64,000 nt of DNA from TPA_inf: Saccharomyces. Its lineage: Eukaryota. Below, in pieces: positions 7,041 to 29,835 of this stretch. Both the position numbers and the translations under genes were made by a program. The first letter of the stretch is position 1. The number at the start of each line of letters is the position of its first letter. Below the pieces are notes generated by a model that was given only the letters and a program-made list of their open reading frames with translations, was not told the origin of the DNA and ran no database searches. Location of the stretch: positions 1,467,934 to 1,531,933 of the forward strand of contig BK006938.2 of NCBI GenBank assembly GCA_000146045.2. Reading direction: 5' to 3'.

Positions 7041-8543
7041 TTATGCCACCAGAGCACACAAAGCTGCGCCAACACCGGACCCATCTTTGGCTAGACGCAA
7101 ATGTATCTTACGTTCACCCTCAGTGCCAATTGGACTTAATGCCAAAGCATGTCTCAGCATGGATCTGAATCCAGGATAGTATTCGATGACATAACCGTCA
7201 AAACCAATTTCTACCTCACCGTGATATCTTTTGTTCAAAGCGTTTGTCTTGATTAGGATGGCGGCAATCGGAACGGCTGCTAGATATGCAGACCTTCTCG
7301 TAATGGAACGGACCAGATTTTGAATTGCTTTACGTTCTTCAAAAGTGGTCGGTAGCCTCAAACTCTGCAAAAACGACAATTCAGTTTCACGCAAGTTTGT
7401 CGAATCATCGATTTCAATCCTGGAAAGAACTTCACTGCACAATTGGAAAGGAGTCTTTAAACGGTGAGGTAATTGATCGTAATTACGATACTGTCCCAAG
7501 ATTAAGCCCCTTGCATGCAAGTCCACCAGGATGTTCCTTAACAGCTCACCCAAGTACATGCCGGAAATTCTTTTTTCAAATAGATGGTAACCTGGATTTG
7601 GAGAAAATTTTTGGTCAATATCGATGTCATACTTTGTAGCAGACAAATGTTTCAATTCATTGTCGAAAGAACCCCATTCGATGTTGATGCACATTTGGGT
7701 TTTTCCTTCATGCAGCAGTCTTGTTCTGAGCTCATCTGGTAGCTTCTTGATGTTTTCAATATCCTCCATATAGCAACCGTTAGTACCAGTACCAAAGATA
7801 CAACCAATGACAGGCTCGCTAATCTCACCAGCACTCGATGGACGAGAGCCTGAAGTGTAGCAGTGGGATAGGAAAGTGCCAACCGTGTCGTTGGTCAAAG
7901 CTACCACATTAATCATAGAGAGCCCCTGAATGTCTAATTGCTCCTGGTATAACCTCACGACATCCTTGCCGACCGTGTCTTCAATCTTGAAGCTTTTGGT
8001 CCATCTGATTAAAGTACCGGAACTCAAAGAGGTTTGGTCAACGGGATATGAGAAGGTAAATCCCATTTTCAAAGGTTTTATGTTCTCCCCCGTGGACTTC
8101 AACAACTCAGGATGATGCTTCCTAACGAAGGCCCTTGTACGGCGACCCAGGTAGCTAAACAGCTCCTCGCTGGTGACATCCTTGTCATTTAGATATTCTT
8201 CCGGAATCTTAGACTTCAATTGCTGCATATCAAAGGTTCCGTCACCATTCAAAGTCACAGAACACACTCTGAAGTGAGTCCCACCTAAATCTGCAGCCAG
8301 CAAAACACCACGTTCCGTCCCATTGGGCAAACTGGTTACATATGTAGGGATCATGGGTAGACCCTTGTCCACCGTCTTTTCTTCGCCTACAGAGGTGTTA
8401 TTCAACCCCTTTTCCATACATTCAATGAAGTACGCTGTTAGTTCGTCCAACTTTGCTGCATCAACCTGCAATGAGGAGCAGATCTCAACCACTGCATCTT
8501 CCAATGCCTCAGCATTGACTTTATGTAAATTTTCAAATGACAT
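7041..8543 (-). CDS. EMI2: Hexokinase-family glucokinase paralog, 500 aa from the MSFENLHKV start
   Basis: 516-aa ORF; the internal ATG (complement of 8541-8543) gives 500 aa. Hexokinase motifs are present (LAADLGGTHFRV, GTGTNGCYME). Confidence 0.88.
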   Translation of the reverse strand: MSFENLHKVNAEALEDAVVEICSSLQVDAAKLDELTAYFIECMEKGLNNTSVGEEKTVDKGLPMIPTYVTSLPNGTERGVLLAADLGGTHFRVCSVTLNGDGTFDMQQLKSKIPEEYLNDKDVTSEELFSYLGRRTRAFVRKHHPELLKSTGENIKPLKMGFTFSYPVDQTSLSSGTLIRWTKSFKIEDTVGKDVVRLYQEQLDIQGLSMINVVALTNDTVGTFLSHCYTSGSRPSSAGEISEPVIGCIFGTGTNGCYMEDIENIKKLPDELRTRLLHEGKTQMCINIEWGSFDNELKHLSATKYDIDIDQKFSPNPGYHLFEKRISGMYLGELLRNILVDLHARGLILGQYRNYDQLPHRLKTPFQLCSEVLSRIEIDDSTNLRETELSFLQSLRLPTTFEERKAIQNLVRSITRRSAYLAAVPIAAILIKTNALNKRYHGEVEIGFDGYVIEYYPGFRSMLRHALALSPIGTEGERKIHLRLAKDGSGVGAALCALVA

Positions 8544-21865: not shown

Positions 21866-22662
21866 TGTTTTGTTGATGATTAGTGTTGATTGAAACTTAT
21901 GTTTAATGATGATTTTCCTCTAAAATCAAAAACAATATTAACTAATAAAGTAAATAATACAGTAGGAGAAGATGGAAAAGAAAATCAAGAATTTCTCGAG
22001 TTCCTTATATATGAGGAGAAAAGCCAGGAAAACCACCGCGATGACACACAGCACCATATCTCATGTAACAAACGTGAAAAAAGCGATGATTTTTTTTCTG
22101 CTTTCTTTTTCTCATTTCTCAAGCGGATATTCCGCTTGCAAAAAGAAAAGGCGTGGCTCTGGTCTTCGCTATTTTGGAAATAAACTTTGGCGTCCTACGC
22201 CCAGAAGCGGCCAAAGCGGCCAATCACGCCCGAAGACGGGACCGCACGGCTCCCAACGAGTCGTTTTTTTGGAACTGAAAAAGGCCCAACGTTGGGCCTA
22301 GGCCCTTACCGCGCCCATTTCGGAAACTGCATTACTTTTTCGGGACGTATTCTCGGGAAATAAGCAGGTCCAGATCCGCGTAGCATGAATGGGGCGCCAA
22401 AACAGTCGCGGGTAACGAAAGAGCGCAACCACGCGTATATTCCGGGCCGGTGAGGGGCAACGCGCATTGTCCCGGGGCGATATAATCCATGTACCGGAAC
22501 CCGCACTTTTTCGACTTTCTTTCCCCTTTTCCTGTCTCCTATTGTGCGAGAAAGGTTTGATTGACAAGAGATCTTTACTGATCGATCTTAGTTAGTCCTC
22601 GAATAAGCATTTTGCAAGTACCAGTCATCGTATTAGAGAACATACAACTTTAGAATTACACT

Positions 22663-22902
22663 ATGCACGCCCGCGACTGGTTTTTAGTTTTTATTGCAAT
22701 TTTCATTCCTCCCTTAGCAGTCTGGCTAAAAAGAGGTTTTTTTACCAAGGATCTGCTCATTAACTTTCTGTTATTTTTACTAGGGTTTTTCCCTGGTCTG
22801 ATCCATGCTTTGTACGTGATCAGCTGTCATCCATATGAGGAGAACGAGGCCCGGTACTCACACCTCTCCTCCTCGGATGATAACTATGGTAGTTTAGCAT
22901 GA
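22663..22902 (+). CDS. SNA2: PMP3/UPF0057-family small membrane proteolipid, 79 aa
   Basis: MHARDWFLVFIAIFIPPLAVWLKRGFFTKDLLINFLLFLLGFFPGLIHALYVISCHPYEENEARYSHLSSSDDNYGSLA, with two transmembrane helices. Confidence 0.9.
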   Translation: MHARDWFLVFIAIFIPPLAVWLKRGFFTKDLLINFLLFLLGFFPGLIHALYVISCHPYEENEARYSHLSSSDDNYGSLA

Positions 22903-23160
22903 GTGACTCTTTCTACGTTATCCTCCTCCGCAGAATTTCGTAATAAGTGATGTGTGGCTCTTTTGCTACCCTTTTTTTTTCATTTCTTTCTTTTTTTTCT
23001 ATTTTATTTTTTCTTTTTCATTTTTCGGTACTTCTATGTACCTGAAATGAATAATAATGTAATGGCAAGCCATCTCATCGCTGTCGGCTAAGTAAATCTA
23101 TAGTTTAATATATTCATTTTCCCTCATTCAAAGAAGATAAATCACTCTGCCACCATCGTA

Positions 23161-24480
23161 ATGGACTTACTGGGCGATATAGTGGAGAAAGATACATCTG
23201 ACTCTGTTGAAAGTAATGACAATGGCACTCTTAGTACCAACAACTGTGGAACGGGATTTCCCGAGTTGTACAAACCCAAGAAAATATCATCTTGGAAGGA
23301 AAGACTAAGAGAAAAAAGAGCCCAAAAGAAAAAAACTAGTGGCAAGGATGCTGAAAAGCAACAAACGAGTACAGACGCCCCACTATCCGAGGCAAAATCT
23401 ATCCATAATGAAAATATTAAAGTTCTGCAGGGAATGAGTGATGAACAAATCGTGCAAGAACGTGAGGATCTGTATAACTCTTTAGATCCCAAACTGATTG
23501 CCAAGCTATTGAAAAACATAAATAAAAGAGCGAAGGACGAAAACAACACTCCATTATTTGCAGAAATAGAAGGCGCTTCTGGTACCTGGGTAGGTGGCAA
23601 CAAGCAAGGCATATACGATCTACCACCGTTAGACGATGAAGATGTAGACGTTGCCTTAGAAATTAGGCCTATGTTAGGCAAAGATGCAAAACATGTTCAA
23701 TTTGAAGAAGCAGGAAAAGAAAAAGACGTGGAAGAAGAAGCAAAAACTAATGATGACGTCGATGATATCGCACCCTTAGATTTCCAGATGGCACAATGCA
23801 TTGATCATATGAAAAATGAAGAGCTATTCAAAGACGTTCATTTTATCAAAGAGGAGAGCCAAAATGAAATCAATTTAGAGAAACTTGATATAAATGATCC
23901 TAATTTCAACGATAAATTACACGAAAAATACTTCCCTGATTTGCCCAAAGAGGTCGACAAATTAAAATGGATGCAACCGGTTCAGCAAAAAACAGACAAG
24001 AATTACATCATTGAAGACGTATCTGAATGTAGGTTTGACTTTAATGGCGACCTTGTTCCACCCACAAGACAAATAGACTCTACCATTCACTCAGGGTTGC
24101 ACCATCACAGCGACTCGCCTGAACTCGCCGGTTACACCATAGTGGAGTTAGAACATTTAGCAAGATCCACTTTTCCTTCTCAAAGGTGCATTGCTATACA
24201 AACTTTGGGGAGAATACTTTATAAGCTAGGCCAAAAAAGCTACTACCAGCTAGTGCCAGAAATAGATGCAGACACATACAAGGAAGACGGAAGCATATCG
24301 AACGTTATGGATAAGATCTATTCCATGTTTTGGGACTTGATTAAAGACGGAAAAGTCATCGAATCCTTAGAAATCTCCTCTGATGAGAAATTCACTAGAA
24401 ATTTGTCAGTCAGAAATTATGCTATTGATGCACTTTGGTTATGGAAACAAGGCGGTGGGGACTTCCGAACCAAGAAATAG
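23161..24480 (+). CDS. RBA50: RNA polymerase II-associated protein (RPAP1 homolog), 439 aa
   Basis: 439-aa acidic/charged ORF; position and length match RBA50. Confidence 0.85.
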   Translation: MDLLGDIVEKDTSDSVESNDNGTLSTNNCGTGFPELYKPKKISSWKERLREKRAQKKKTSGKDAEKQQTSTDAPLSEAKSIHNENIKVLQGMSDEQIVQEREDLYNSLDPKLIAKLLKNINKRAKDENNTPLFAEIEGASGTWVGGNKQGIYDLPPLDDEDVDVALEIRPMLGKDAKHVQFEEAGKEKDVEEEAKTNDDVDDIAPLDFQMAQCIDHMKNEELFKDVHFIKEESQNEINLEKLDINDPNFNDKLHEKYFPDLPKEVDKLKWMQPVQQKTDKNYIIEDVSECRFDFNGDLVPPTRQIDSTIHSGLHHHSDSPELAGYTIVELEHLARSTFPSQRCIAIQTLGRILYKLGQKSYYQLVPEIDADTYKEDGSISNVMDKIYSMFWDLIKDGKVIESLEISSDEKFTRNLSVRNYAIDALWLWKQGGGDFRTKK

Positions 24481-24542
24481 ATAGAGAAAAAAATAATAGT
24501 ACATACAGGTGCGCCGACCAGCGCCTATTCATAAAAACAAGA

Positions 24543-25092
24543 ATAATGTGTCTCTTTGAGTCATGTTCCTTAGCTTCTTTTTTAAAAAAACTGTCTCAGG
24601 TATTTTCGCTTCTTTGATCTCCCAATCTCCATATCCCAACCACGTTCATATACCTCAAGCCGATTTCAACCAAACTTGAACGAAAAACTCAGACAGGTCT
24701 GGTAAAATATCTGCAATGAAGTACGCACAACTCAATTGGTATTAATTAATATAGAACATATTAAATGTAGAGGAGAGAAAATTAAATTACATGGGAAACC
24801 AATCTTGAAGGTCCAATAAAGTGAGATGTGCATGGATGAATTATCCATGCAAAAGCAAAAACGAAAAAGTCGCAACCTCAATCATGCCTTTTCTCTCCAA
24901 ATAACTTTTAGAACAAAAGTCAAATATAGGAAAGGGAAAATATCATTCTCCAAAGCAAACATTAAGTCACTGATCAACAGAGAACAATGGTTTATCTTTG
25001 CACATTGACACATTCATCGAGGGTTTCAAAGCACTTAAAAAGAGCATGATTCAGTTCAAAAAAATGATCCTCGACAAACTTAAGTTGTGCAA
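24543..25092 (-). ncRNA. SNR84: Candidate long box H/ACA snoRNA, ~550 nt, most likely snR84
   Basis: It sits in a 2.1-kb ORF-free gap directly after the RBA50 stop. The minus-strand transcript would end ...GAGACACAUUA, with ACA three nt from the 3' end. A perfect 8-bp stem GCATGGAT-gaatt-ATCCATGC lies at 24830-24850. From memory, snR84 (~550 nt) maps between RBA50 and HLR1; I could not verify the boundaries. Confidence 0.4.
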
Positions 25093-26652
25093 TTCACATC
25101 AGCATATCCATATAAAGCTTATAGTGTGATGATGAGTACTCTCATTAACTAGCTCTGTTATTCAAACTTTAAACTTCGGATACTTGACTGCTCTCTTCGT
25201 TTGTAAGTAGCTTGATTGTAGTTACATCGTCGTTCTCATCGCATCTTTTTTTATTAGTTATGAAAAATTTTTCACTTTTCACCTAGTTAGGATACCCGGC
25301 TGGATTCTTTTGTACTAACCTCTATGGATTTCGTGGTCCTCTCATGTCACGTCAAAATTTCAGATCATATGTCAGGGTAACATTTATGCACTCGGAGATT
25401 GTCAAACTTATTGACGCAAGCATTTACTATTTTTCCGCACAAGCACCATGTGTGATAACATGCAGATCGCCCATCTGAGCAGTAATATCTAGTCATTATA
25501 TAGTCTATCAAATGTTATACTTCCAGAATTTTTCGCCTCGGCCCAAACATGTACATTTTCTTGGTGGCTTTTTTATTCTGGCTTTCTTTTCCTCTAACGT
25601 TCAACATGGTTGAAAATGCTCTCAAGTCAAATAATAAAACACAATCATAAGAATTCAAAGATGTGCATGAGAACTCTTAACAATACATATTTTTACTGAA
25701 ACACTTTGGTTAGCATCTTGTGATTACTTTATTTATATAACCTAGTCGCCCCTCCCCTGTCTGTACTGTTCTTGCAGGTAAATTCAGGAAATAATACATC
25801 CTCCACGACTACAACATGTGCAAGTACTATCCATAATAGGTGTAATCATAGAGAAGCAGTCCTAAGGAAATAAAATCAAAGAAATTAGGTAAAGGTTGGG
25901 TATTGATAGATGAAAATGTTTTTGCAAGTTAAAAAGGAAAATATGCACATTCTCTTATAACCAAATTCGTCTGACATCGATATATCTTTTCATATAAAGT
26001 TCTTCCCCTTTACCATTCACTCCATGATGTCGTACCTGTTACACTACAGTGCCTGCTTGATTGCGCATTCATAATGGCTGTACACCGTTTACCCAATGCA
26101 TTCTCGTCTGCAAAGAGAAGGATATACATCTTTTTCTGGTAATAACATGTACCGATTAGGAAATTAAGACCCTGCTTTCACGCGTGCTCCTACCATTTCC
26201 GGTAATAAAAGTTCGGGTAAGATTTCTTTTCCAAACGAGCTTACGTGTCGCATCGACAAATATGGCGAGTGCTCTTATATAAGTAGGCAACATCTAAAAA
26301 GAATGGACATCTTTTTTTTCAGTGTGAAGACGTTATCGTGTGAGTATTAATAAAGAGTTGTAATTTGATAATAAGATAACCAAGGAGTAAATATATAAAG
26401 TTCACCACTGCTCTGTTATCTCTTTTTTATAGAGTTCGGAAATCCTCACAGATTATAACCAACTAATCGTCATTCATTTCAAAAAAAAAAAAAAAGGAAG
26501 AATTAGAGCTCTTCCACAATAGTGGCTATTCCAGGCATAATTTCAAATCAAGTGGCAATTTTACGCTCCTCATTCATTTTCCTGTATTATACTTTAATTA
26601 TTCTTATTTCGCTTTTTTTCTCAAGGTGACCTGTTGTATCACGTTAGCTGAA

Positions 26653-27924
26653 ATGGAAAACTTATGCCCTCCACCTCCTTCCCAAATGAAGGATTTTTCC
26701 ACTCCTCCAAGAAACAGGCATCGTCACAAAAGATCCTTTGCTATATCTGGAGATTTTGAATTCTTAAAACAACCTGCCTCTGCGCCTGTTTTGCCTTCTG
26801 CGTACGACTCACCTACCTTCGAAAATACACCAAGAAGAGTAAGCGGTATGAGCGTAACAATGCCTGATGAATCTCAAAATGAATCAGCATTACTAAACTC
26901 ACCAAGCCCAAGGTTTTTTATTAGCGAAGCATCCACATATTCATCACCAATTAAAGGAGTGCCGGACGCTATCATTAATTTGGATGATGTGCTCATTAAT
27001 AAACCAAAAATGTGTAGATCACATCGCAAAACCAAATCAGTACCAGTAAAATTGGACGAATTTTATTCCTCCCATAAATGTAGCTCAGTACCAGAATTAA
27101 CTATAAATGAAGAAATAGATGAAGATGACACCAACCCTCAGTTGCTGGAGCCCGTAAAACCATTATCATCAACTTCTCTATCTACTGATATGAATGAAGA
27201 TAAAAAAATGACACTAAAAAATGCCAGGAGCCATAACTCGTTAAAAATTCAGGCACAAAAGCAAAGGTACTACAACTCAGCAAGGTATCTGCCTTTGAAT
27301 AGTGAGGACCGAGCAACAGATCCACAAATTTTAACGAAGCAAAGCTCTGTTACGTCTTTATTTTCTTCTAGGTCAATTACACCTGTATCTTGTAACATTA
27401 ACAATGCGGGTAGAATCAATGCAATCAGTGGTAATTATCTAGATGACGTCCTTTATGACCTTGACACCCCTGCCACAACTCTAATTCAGGATATTGATAA
27501 CCTTCAAACTAGTATCAACGAAAGGGTTAGGTTGTCACCACAATCCTCGTCGATAAAAAAGTATTTTTCCAAAGATGGAAAATCTGTTAGCAGCTTCAAT
27601 TTCCAGTCTCAGGAGTGCGATATGGTATCTTTTACTGAGGATTTTGCCCATGTAACATCATTGTCTTCTTCTATTCTTGACTCTGAGAAACAAACAGACG
27701 ACGAAGAAGAAGAGAGTATTCCGGAAGAAATACTACGAGGAGAACCCCTCCACGTATACAACGAAACTAGTGGATCTGATAAAAGTGTCATTTTGCCGAC
27801 GAAACAAAAATCTGCTCCCATTAACAAGGATAGTAAGCACAGTTCAACTCAGTATGAAGAAAAATCTTTTAAGAAGAATAGAAAGTTCAAAATTTTCGCC
27901 AAGTTATTCTGCACTAGGAAATAG
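26653..27924 (+). CDS. HLR1: Ser/Thr-rich protein involved in cell-wall/osmotic regulation (LRE1 paralog), 423 aa from MENLCPPPP
   Basis: The 432-aa ORF contains an internal ATG that gives 423 aa. Ser-rich low-complexity sequence. Confidence 0.8.
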
Positions 27925-28231
27925 TAGAATAAATTTAAGATATATAGACCACTCGATACCCCATCACCTGCATAATTATAGAAAAAATAAATACTAATAG
28001 ATACCCGATTTATAACACTAGACATTACAATATACGAATTTCATAATAAAATTTTAAGTTCAGACTATAGATAAATAAATAATATGAAGTAAACGTTTCA
28101 AGCAAACGCTTATATATATATAGAGAGATAATAAAGGATATGATTTAGTCTCTGTCCCTTCTTTCAAATGAATATTTAATGCCTTTTTTTTTTCGGGTTG
28201 TGTGTTCGTGGTGATTTTTTTATTCTTCTTT

Positions 28232-28615
28232 TCATTTGGAGACCTCTATGTTGTCTAACTCGTCCTTCTCCTTAGCTGCAGCTTCAGCTTCTAATATGTA
28301 TGGCAACAGGTAAGGAACATCCTCTTGGGCTTTGATCCATTCGTTTCTTGGCAGTAAATGATGAGTCAACTCGGTTTGATGAGCCCTGATTATTCTATAT
28401 GCTCTGGCATAAGATTCATCTTCAGGGAGTCTTCTTAAAGCGGTCTGCATGATGGGATTTTCCTCTGCAATTAAGTCGTCAAATTTGAGCCCTAACTTCT
28501 TGTAACCTGCGAGGTTAATGAACTGATTGGCAACTGGAACACATAACTTGGAGAGGACGGGTGACTTCAAAATATAGTCACCAATTCTCGCAATAGACGT
28601 AAAAGACTGTGGCAT
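28232..28615 (-). CDS. QCR7: Ubiquinol-cytochrome c reductase subunit 7, 127 aa
   Basis: [80 protein letters not shown]... Confidence 0.93.
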
Positions 28616-28789
28616 TTTGTTCTTTCTGGAACGTTTAATTACAGTTACTAATATTCTGATAAATTGTCCAACAACAACCTTTACTGCTATTTTTCCAAGC
28701 TTTTACATCTCTTCCCTTTTATTACTGCTCTATGAAAGTAAATTGTCAGGCCCCCCGCCGGGGTGACCCGATAAAAAGCGCGTCGCTCC

Positions 28790-28799
28790 TGATTGGTCA
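28790..28799 (-). promoter_or_regulatory. CCAAT box (TGACCAATCA on the gene strand) upstream of QCR7; candidate Hap2/3/4/5 site
   Basis: The + strand reads TGATTGGTCA about 180 bp upstream of the QCR7 ATG. QCR7 is a respiratory gene under HAP control. Confidence 0.5.
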
Positions 28800-28857
28800 A
28801 AACAAGATCACAGCGCAGTTACACATCTATAGACAATGTACATATGGCTAATAGACC

Positions 28858-29835
28858 TTAATAGTGATACTCTGTTGGTTTTTGGCCTGCTGTGTTGGGG
28901 AAACCGCATTGCAGTAACGACTTGTCCACAAGATGAGGATCTTCAGTGAGGTTCTCTAGTTTTTCTCTGTCTTTAACGAGGATCATACCACAGTACCCCG
29001 TGGAGTTAATGTTTAACATCAATGGCGGTCCACTCTTGGCATGCGATCTTGGAACTACACAGATCCATTTCTTGGTCAGTAGCACATTGTATGACTTGGT
29101 CAACTCCGGAGACTCATTGGTCCAATCTTGGAAAAATGTAAGTGCTCTCTGCATCAAAGATACGTAACACATAGCAAGAAGATCTTCGTCCACTTGATCA
29201 GACGATTCCGGCAGCGGCAAGACGAAATGAGCAAAGGAAACCTTATCATCTTGTAATGGCTCTGCGTTGAAGGTGGGCAAGAAATGATCCTTTCCGTTGC
29301 ACAATACGTCCTGAAAAGGTATAAATTTTTCAGGCATTTGCATGATCTGCAAGTGTTTGTGATCTTGTGAGGAACCGCTATGAGGTCCACAATTATAAAA
29401 GACCAGATACCTTTCACAAGTGACATCATCGTCCTTGTCTCCTTGGAGAGAACAGAGCACATTATAAGCAGTCATCAAGTCACTTGGCGTCAAAGCAGAT
29501 CTCTGGTCTTTAAACTCGCTTGTCACTAGGAGACTATGTTCAGGGACCACAGGAAATTTGTTGAGTAGCAGCTTATATTCTCCGTCACCATTTAGATCTT
29601 CAGTCACCACTAGTTCTTCGTCGGGATTGGCGAACGGGTCCTCCGCCTTTGAATCGCTATTCTTGTTAGCGTCTGGCTTAAGTGCCAAAGATGGAGCAAA
29701 TGTCACCCAATATTGTGTCGTCGTTTGAGGATCTTTCAACTTCTTGGATTCTGCATGCGTTACTTTCAGATGCCCATTCTTTTTGGCTGCAACGAACTTA
29801 TCGTGGATTTTCTGTTTCAAATTCTCTTCAATCAT
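28858..29835 (-). CDS. APA2: Diadenosine tetraphosphate (Ap4A) phosphorylase II, 325 aa from MIEENLKQ
   Basis: 346-aa ORF; the internal ATG at 29835 gives 325 aa. Confidence 0.85.
   Translation of the reverse strand: MIEENLKQKIHDKFVAAKKNGHLKVTHAESKKLKDPQTTTQYWVTFAPSLALKPDANKNSDSKAEDPFANPDEELVVTEDLNGDGEYKLLLNKFPVVPEHSLLVTSEFKDQRSALTPSDLMTAYNVLCSLQGDKDDDVTCERYLVFYNCGPHSGSSQDHKHLQIMQMPEKFIPFQDVLCNGKDHFLPTFNAEPLQDDKVSFAHFVLPLPESSDQVDEDLLAMCYVSLMQRALTFFQDWTNESPELTKSYNVLLTKKWICVVPRSHAKSGPPLMLNINSTGYCGMILVKDREKLENLTEDPHLVDKSLLQCGFPNTAGQKPTEYHY

Follow-up and report, generated by a model that had tools for sequence, protein, structure and literature searches.

As a class, H/ACA snoRNAs assemble with Cbf5, Nop10, Nhp2 and Gar1, and the uridine to be modified canonically lies 14-16 nt from the H or ACA box. 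The snR84 RNA of Saccharomyces cerevisiae has been annotated since 2003-2004, with published deletion phenotypes, and Schattner et al. 2004 is reportedly the original paper on its target. Helix 69 of the 25S rRNA is a contact for the P-site tRNA. In the literature, snR84 is assigned to Psi2266 in this helix and has a 5' pocket only. Two other atypical yeast H/ACA snoRNAs are snR85 (5' pocket only) and snR86 (~1000 nt), which, like snR84, are oversized or single-pocket RNAs that are transcribed independently. They differ from snR84 in targets and sequences.

A hairpin capped by an AGNN tetraloop is the substrate signature of Rnt1, which cleaves ~14-16 bp away from the loop. The precursors of snR83, snR85, snR87 and snR81 share with that of snR84 an AGNN-capped leader hairpin, a cut by Rnt1 and subsequent trimming to the mature end (PMC13183374). 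Unlike these Rnt1 precursors, snR84 was formerly believed to be capped, and a capped population may co-exist. A 2026 report describes Rnt1 cuts in pre-snR84 at -26 and -74, Rnt1-dependent 5' ends of SNR84/YNCD0032C at chrIV 1493026, 1493052/3 and 1493100 on the minus strand (PARE), and a 5' monophosphate on the mature RNA (PMC13183374). The RNA has also been detected by northern blot in snoRNA immunoprecipitation panels that include Gar1-TAP (PMC3239182).

The gap between RBA50 and HLR1

The locus described here lies in a stretch of 64 kb of DNA, which we call the window. We take the window to be the final 64 kb (right end) of S. cerevisiae chromosome IV, by the same offset of 1467933 that converts window positions to chrIV coordinates. 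Two plus-strand genes frame the locus: RBA50 (23161-24480), which encodes RPAP1_N and RPAP1_C domains, and HLR1 (26653-27924), and their products match S288C Rba50p and Hlr1p exactly. From the RBA50 stop at 24480 to the HLR1 ATG at 26653, the intervening gap (24481-26652) measures 2172 bp. The first-pass annotation had drawn attention to 2.1 kb without an ORF of more than 60 aa, and the mechanical ORF list agrees: the longest ORFs are two of 60 aa, at 24435-24617 (which begins within RBA50) and 24826-25008. Its range of 60-700 bp for neighbouring spacers was roughly right, the ORF list giving 242-797 bp. In all four of the other Saccharomyces species compared (S. paradoxus, S. mikatae, S. arboricola and S. 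kudriavzevii), the gap after RBA50 spans 2215-2481 bp.

An Rfam scan matched the snR84 family (RF01270, H/ACA) to the minus strand at 25093..24557 with 534.7 bits (E 1.7e-162), against a gathering score of 109 bits, and the match spans positions 1-569 of the 569 in the model. This is the sole gathering-level Rfam match in the whole 64-kb window. The same family is matched at the equivalent place and on the same strand in the four other Saccharomyces species, with 445-548 bits. Besides snR84, a permissive Rfam scan of 24300-26800 returned only chance-level matches to CRISPR-DR41, RybB and ES003 (E 0.6-7.5), and there is no tRNA in 22000-29000.

The first-pass annotation had suggested that a ~550-nt snR84 maps between RBA50 and HLR1, to be checked by alignment to snR84 or an Rfam search; the full-length match and the exact flanks bear this out, and the span proposed at the time (24543-25092) was off by 1 nt from the 24544-25093 derived here. 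The gene is the annotated snR84 of S. cerevisiae (SGD SNR84/YNCD0032C; RF01270), with which it agrees in its locus between RBA50 and HLR1, its strand, its match to the full model and its PARE 5' end. We regard it as nearly certain that the gap houses SNR84, an independently transcribed minus-strand box H/ACA snoRNA, with the processing, anatomy and guiding of Psi2266 proposed below. Direct support in this analysis covers identity, architecture, conservation, covariation, complementarity and synteny. The caveats on the identification are limits only, and no contradicting evidence was found in the analysis. The gene is already known and long annotated and holds no novelty in kind; with its target known as well, it has little weight as a discovery. 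What the first reading did achieve was to recognise a non-coding gene from raw sequence, and the base-level anatomy of the 2.17-kb gap can now be given.

Anatomy, guide pairing and processing of the RNA

Counted from the PARE-mapped 5' end, the position three nucleotides past the ACA box yields a mature RNA of 550 nt on the minus strand (24544..25093, with nt 1 at 25093 and nt 550 at 24544), which we take to be its annotated length. RF01270 stops 13 nt short of this ACA-defined end, so the 3' end is placed by ACA+3, by the basal stem and by conservation, not by mapped ends. The presumed minus-strand terminus reads GAGACACAUUA, in which the ACA occupies 24549-24547 and the third base after it is 24544; it has the ACA-NNN-3' form noticed early on near 24544, with UUA as its last three bases.

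The MFE fold of 25093..24544 is more stable than those of shuffled sequences (z = -3.2) and has an H/ACA layout; the order of hairpin, hinge (ANANNA), hairpin and ACA anticipated for this strand is present and conserved. In its 5' hairpin (nt 2-96; 24998..25092, minus strand), UUGCACA (nt 2-8) and UGUGCAA (nt 90-96) form the lower stem, and the upper stem has 11 bp (nt 15-25 with 72-82). The two strands of the pocket are ACUUAA on the 5' side (nt 9-14; 25080..25085) and GUGUCAA on the 3' side (nt 83-89; 25005..25011). Immediately after the lower stem stands the H box, AGAUAA (nt 97-102; 24992..24997), which is invariant in the five Saccharomyces species.

The 3' "hairpin" is a multibranched domain of 433 nt (nt 111-543; 24551..24983, minus strand; helices 11-27 of the alignment), an atypical size for the hairpin-hinge-hairpin-tail layout of box H/ACA RNAs. 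A long basal stem (nt 111-125 with 528-543) closes it, and a single unpaired C separates this stem from the ACA box (nt 545-547; 24547..24549), which is followed by UUA. In the MFE fold, the domain lacks an internal loop at the canonical distance from the ACA (14-16 nt). A stem of the form GCATGGAT-gaatt-ATCCATGC, picked out in the first-pass annotation, is exact at 24830-24850. Read on the minus strand, it is an 8-bp stem-loop (GCAUGGAU AAUUC AUCCAUGC) within the 3' domain, helix 18 of the alignment, which is a modelled hairpin in the Rfam snR84 consensus and is 97% paired in five species.

The pocket was derived from the fold and then checked against an rRNA sequence. We take helix 69 to read GAGUAACUAUGACUC-U2266-CUUAAGGUAGCC, and the 25S numbering near U2266 is based on this assumption together with the published Psi spacing; that spacing (2258/2260/2264/2266) fits the U positions in the assumed sequence. 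C10-A14 of snR84 pairs with 25S 2272-2268 (UUAAG), G83 with 2265 and G85-A88 with 2263-2260, and U84 stands opposite U2264 (U.U). The pocket strands flank U2266-C2267 of helix 69, and the distance from G83 to the H box that follows is the canonical 14 nt. The helix-69 33-mer GTAACTATGACTCTCTTAAGGTAGCCAAATGCC occurs in >120 metagenome contigs, and a scan of the viral_contigs set found it absent there. One of the metagenome contigs carries a full-length eukaryotic LSU rRNA (RF02543) with the 33-mer at position 2224, and this rRNA was used for scoring. When each U of this eukaryotic, non-yeast LSU rRNA is set against the pocket strands, the equivalent of U2266 ranks first of 637 with a score of 18 (mean -7.3, sd 6.7), against 17 for the next-best U. 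The pairing is short (5 + 5 bp, with one U.U) and would be weak alone; it convinces when taken with the invariance over 11 species and the assignment in the literature.

Two other segments were considered as guides and rejected. The 3' domain contains GAGUUGUG and ACCUU segments that could be read as a guide, but no H/ACA box stands at the proper distance from them, and the literature gives a 5' pocket only. A 7-nt identity with helix 69 at nt 529-536 of snR84 (AUGACUCA) belongs to the basal stem.

The 87 nt that precede nt 1 (25094..25180, minus strand) have a conservation of 0.82-0.86 in the five species and form the 5' leader of pre-snR84, which contains an Rnt1-type hairpin. They fold as a branched stem in which an AGUA tetraloop (25140-25137) caps the stem AUGAG/CUCAU. 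Across the five species the loop reads AGUA, AGUA, AGAA, AGUU and AGUG, with AG invariant and NN variable. The stability of the hairpin does not exceed that of shuffles (z = 0.12). Converted to window positions, the PARE ends fall at 25093, 25119/20 and 25167, and the cleavages at -26 and -74 correspond to ~25119 and ~25167.

At the other end, RBA50 and snR84 are convergent, with 63 bp (24481-24543) from the stop codon to the snoRNA 3' end, a distance kept at 60-67 bp in the five Saccharomyces species. It is probable that the 3' UTR of RBA50 extends into snR84 in antisense and that the terminator of snR84 extends into RBA50. A Nab3-type motif, UCUUG (24538..24542, minus strand), begins 2 nt past the snR84 3' end and is partly conserved; judging by its letters and place, it is a possible candidate for an NNS terminator element.

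In the account that we favour, SNR84 is transcribed independently from the minus strand, and its leader forms the AGNN-capped hairpin that is cut by RNase III (Rnt1). Trimming after this cut yields the 550-nt RNA (25093..24544), whose parts, the 5' hairpin, the AGAUAA H box, the very large 3' domain and the ACA-UUA end, are those by which an H/ACA snoRNA is defined. The ACUUAA/GUGUCAA internal loop pairs with helix 69 on either side of U2266-C2267 and presents U2266 to Cbf5 for conversion to pseudouridine, and the 3' domain, without a guide pocket, presumably has a scaffold or stability role. Expression, Rnt1 cleavage and the assignment to Psi2266 are taken from the literature.

Covariation and synteny among yeasts

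In an alignment of five species, S. cerevisiae and S. paradoxus, S. mikatae, S. arboricola and S. kudriavzevii, the proportion of paired cells is 92.8%, against 40-52% in controls slid by 1-3 columns. Compensatory change on both sides is seen in 22 pairs, against 2-6 in the slid controls. Within the 3' domain these changes lie mainly in helices 15, 22 and 26, which together account for 13 pairs. The ACA box is invariant across the five species, and conservation in Saccharomyces is 0.93 for the 5' hairpin against 0.71-0.88 for the 3' domain. The 5' hairpin, the pocket and the H box are near-invariant within the genus and so offer little covariation there, and more distant yeasts were therefore examined.

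The outgroups were K. africana, N. glabratus, N. dairenensis, Z. mrakii, L. thermotolerans and K. lactis (six genera). RF01270 has no match at gathering level in the six outgroup loci. In a pattern search, the exact 13-mer TGCACAACTTAAG together with the GTGTC pocket strand and the H box has a single occurrence in each of the 11 species, past RBA50 and on the minus strand. In the outgroups, TGCACAACTTAAG is followed 40-90 nt on by GTGTC, the lower-stem strand and an ANANNA-like box. The pocket pattern and a covarying upper stem place the snR84 5' hairpins, all on the minus strand, at 7776-7857 in K. africana (locus L005), 7825-7912 in N. glabratus (L006), 8022-8135 in N. dairenensis (L007), 7845-7923 in Z. 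mrakii (L008), 7741-7832 in L. thermotolerans (L009) and 7730-7833 in K. lactis (L010). An H box that is ANANNA-like is present in all 11 species; in K. africana and N. glabratus it reads AGAUUG, which deviates at position 6.

Over the 11 species, the two stems of the 5' hairpin are 96.5% paired, against 30-52% in slid controls, and compensatory change is seen at 6 of the 11 pairs in the upper stem. The pocket segments ACUUAA and GUGUC show zero variation. Searches for the basal stem and the ACA give predicted total lengths of 550-596 nt in Saccharomyces and ~426-601 nt outside it, all of them predictions only.

The surroundings of the gene differ between Saccharomyces and the other genera. 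In the six loci outside Saccharomyces, RBA50 (with snR84) is followed by KRE28, 0.8-1.2 kb after RBA50 in all six, and then by Fumble-domain (PF03630), Ap4A-phosphorylase and UCR_14kD-domain (PF02271) genes. In Saccharomyces, the gap is followed by HLR1, and the subsequent genes stand in inverted order relative to the six other genera. From this difference in gene order it follows that the extra ~1.3 kb of the gap accompanies the rearrangement.

Is the 3' domain a passive scaffold? A function of its own, as an undetected guide, a chaperone of rRNA folding or a protein platform, seems to us unlikely, although the 433 nt have many helices kept by compensatory change, with 13 such pairs in helices 15, 22 and 26, and the 426-601 nt predicted in other genera suggest an ancestral long form. 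The lack of an internal loop 14-16 nt from the ACA argues the other way, as do a literature that reports the 5' pocket only and a conservation (0.71-0.88) below that of the 5' hairpin (0.93). With the same reserve, the compensatory upkeep of the domain and the apparent length of the RNA across Saccharomycetaceae (~430-600 nt in total) may hint at a second role beyond Psi2266, for example as a chaperone for the helix 69 region or as a docking site for a specific protein, which we would consider doubtful at present. A scaffold or stability role is the reading that we prefer.

The remainder of the gap and the place of snR84 among known snoRNAs

The snR84 RNA takes up ~0.55 kb of the 2.17 kb, or ~0.8 kb with its leader and promoter. 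The gap beyond snR84 is composed of the snR84 leader and promoter, a spacer and the HLR1 promoter. Base composition is unremarkable, and there is no tandem repeat in the gap apart from an A15 tract (26481-26495, plus strand).

Upstream of the leader, a motif search found a PAC site, GCGATGAG (25235-25242), a palindromic RRPE, GAAAAATTTT (25262-25273), and a Reb1-like site, CCGGGTAT (25292-25299), all on the minus strand. The first two are partly conserved, and CCGGGTATC within the third is invariant in five species. These sites (25235..25299) are putative promoter elements of snR84, at which the corresponding factors may bind. PAC, RRPE and ACGCGT are not individually enriched in the window, and their meaning comes from position and conservation only. 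The snR84 promoter has its PAC ~20 bp from its RRPE. The exact PAC GCGATGAG occurs twice in the 64 kb, once in this promoter and once at 23074-23081, ~80 bp upstream of the RBA50 ATG. This arrangement suggests that RBA50 and snR84 may both belong to the ribosome-biogenesis regulon; the PAC counts are not significant alone.

A spacer (25306..26005) with a conservation of 0.56-0.70 and no recognisable feature separates the snR84 promoter from the region before HLR1, which we read as the HLR1 promoter and probable 5' UTR (26006..26652, plus strand). Conservation over 26006-26480, which lies 170-650 bp ahead of the HLR1 ATG, is 0.77-0.96 in the five species, with a peak of 0.94-0.96 at 26206-26280 that is as high as in snR84. 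Three plus-strand motifs are invariant in five species: ACGCGT (26180-26185), CGGGTAA (26214-26220) and TATATAAG (26276-26283). A TATA at 26276, ~375 bp from the HLR1 ATG, implies a long 5' UTR, and the literature names HLR1 among candidate SBF/MBF targets.

That 26006-26480 holds a second unannotated gene, for a structured RNA or a small protein, is very improbable. The idea draws on a conservation equal to that of snR84 over 26206-26280, and on a location 370-650 bp ahead of the HLR1 ATG, a long way off for a core promoter in yeast. A structured RNA was rejected, however, because covariation is absent from the RNAalifold results on both strands (covariation terms +0.4 and -0.2 kcal/mol; of 54-56 pairs, 1-2 are compensatory), and there is no Rfam match. 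A coding reading was rejected too, since no reading frame survives the 4-nt indel of S. paradoxus and the other indels. ACGCGT, CGGGTAA and TATATAAG can moreover be read as promoter elements, in keeping with the proposal of HLR1 as an SBF/MBF target. Given no RNA covariation on either strand, the block is read as the HLR1 promoter and 5' UTR.

That the gap is merely a long regulatory region shared by RBA50 and HLR1, with stem-loops that are chance structure, has practically no probability left: ~1.35 kb (25306-26652) truly is spacer and HLR1 promoter, and AT-rich yeast intergenic DNA folds readily, but the full-length covariance-model match (E 1.7e-162), compensatory changes far above those in slid controls, synteny in 11 species and published RNA ends refute it.

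With snR84 as the occupant of the gap, what the locus adds to known systems is small: an ACA tail and a basal stem that the Rfam model lacks, and orthologues at the syntenic position in six additional genera. Compared with the snR84 described here, the RF01270 model is narrow, in that it ends 13 nt before the ACA-defined 3' end, is without the basal stem that closes the 3' domain and misses the syntenic orthologues outside Saccharomyces. A more distant counterpart is Nc ACA20 of Neurospora crassa, which is listed as the functional equivalent of snR84 and guides the corresponding helix-69 position, 26S Psi2228 (PMC2780460). The two RNAs differ in build: Nc ACA20 is 160 nt long and uses an ACA-proximal (3') pocket (PMC2780460), whereas snR84 is 550 nt long and uses an H-proximal (5') pocket.
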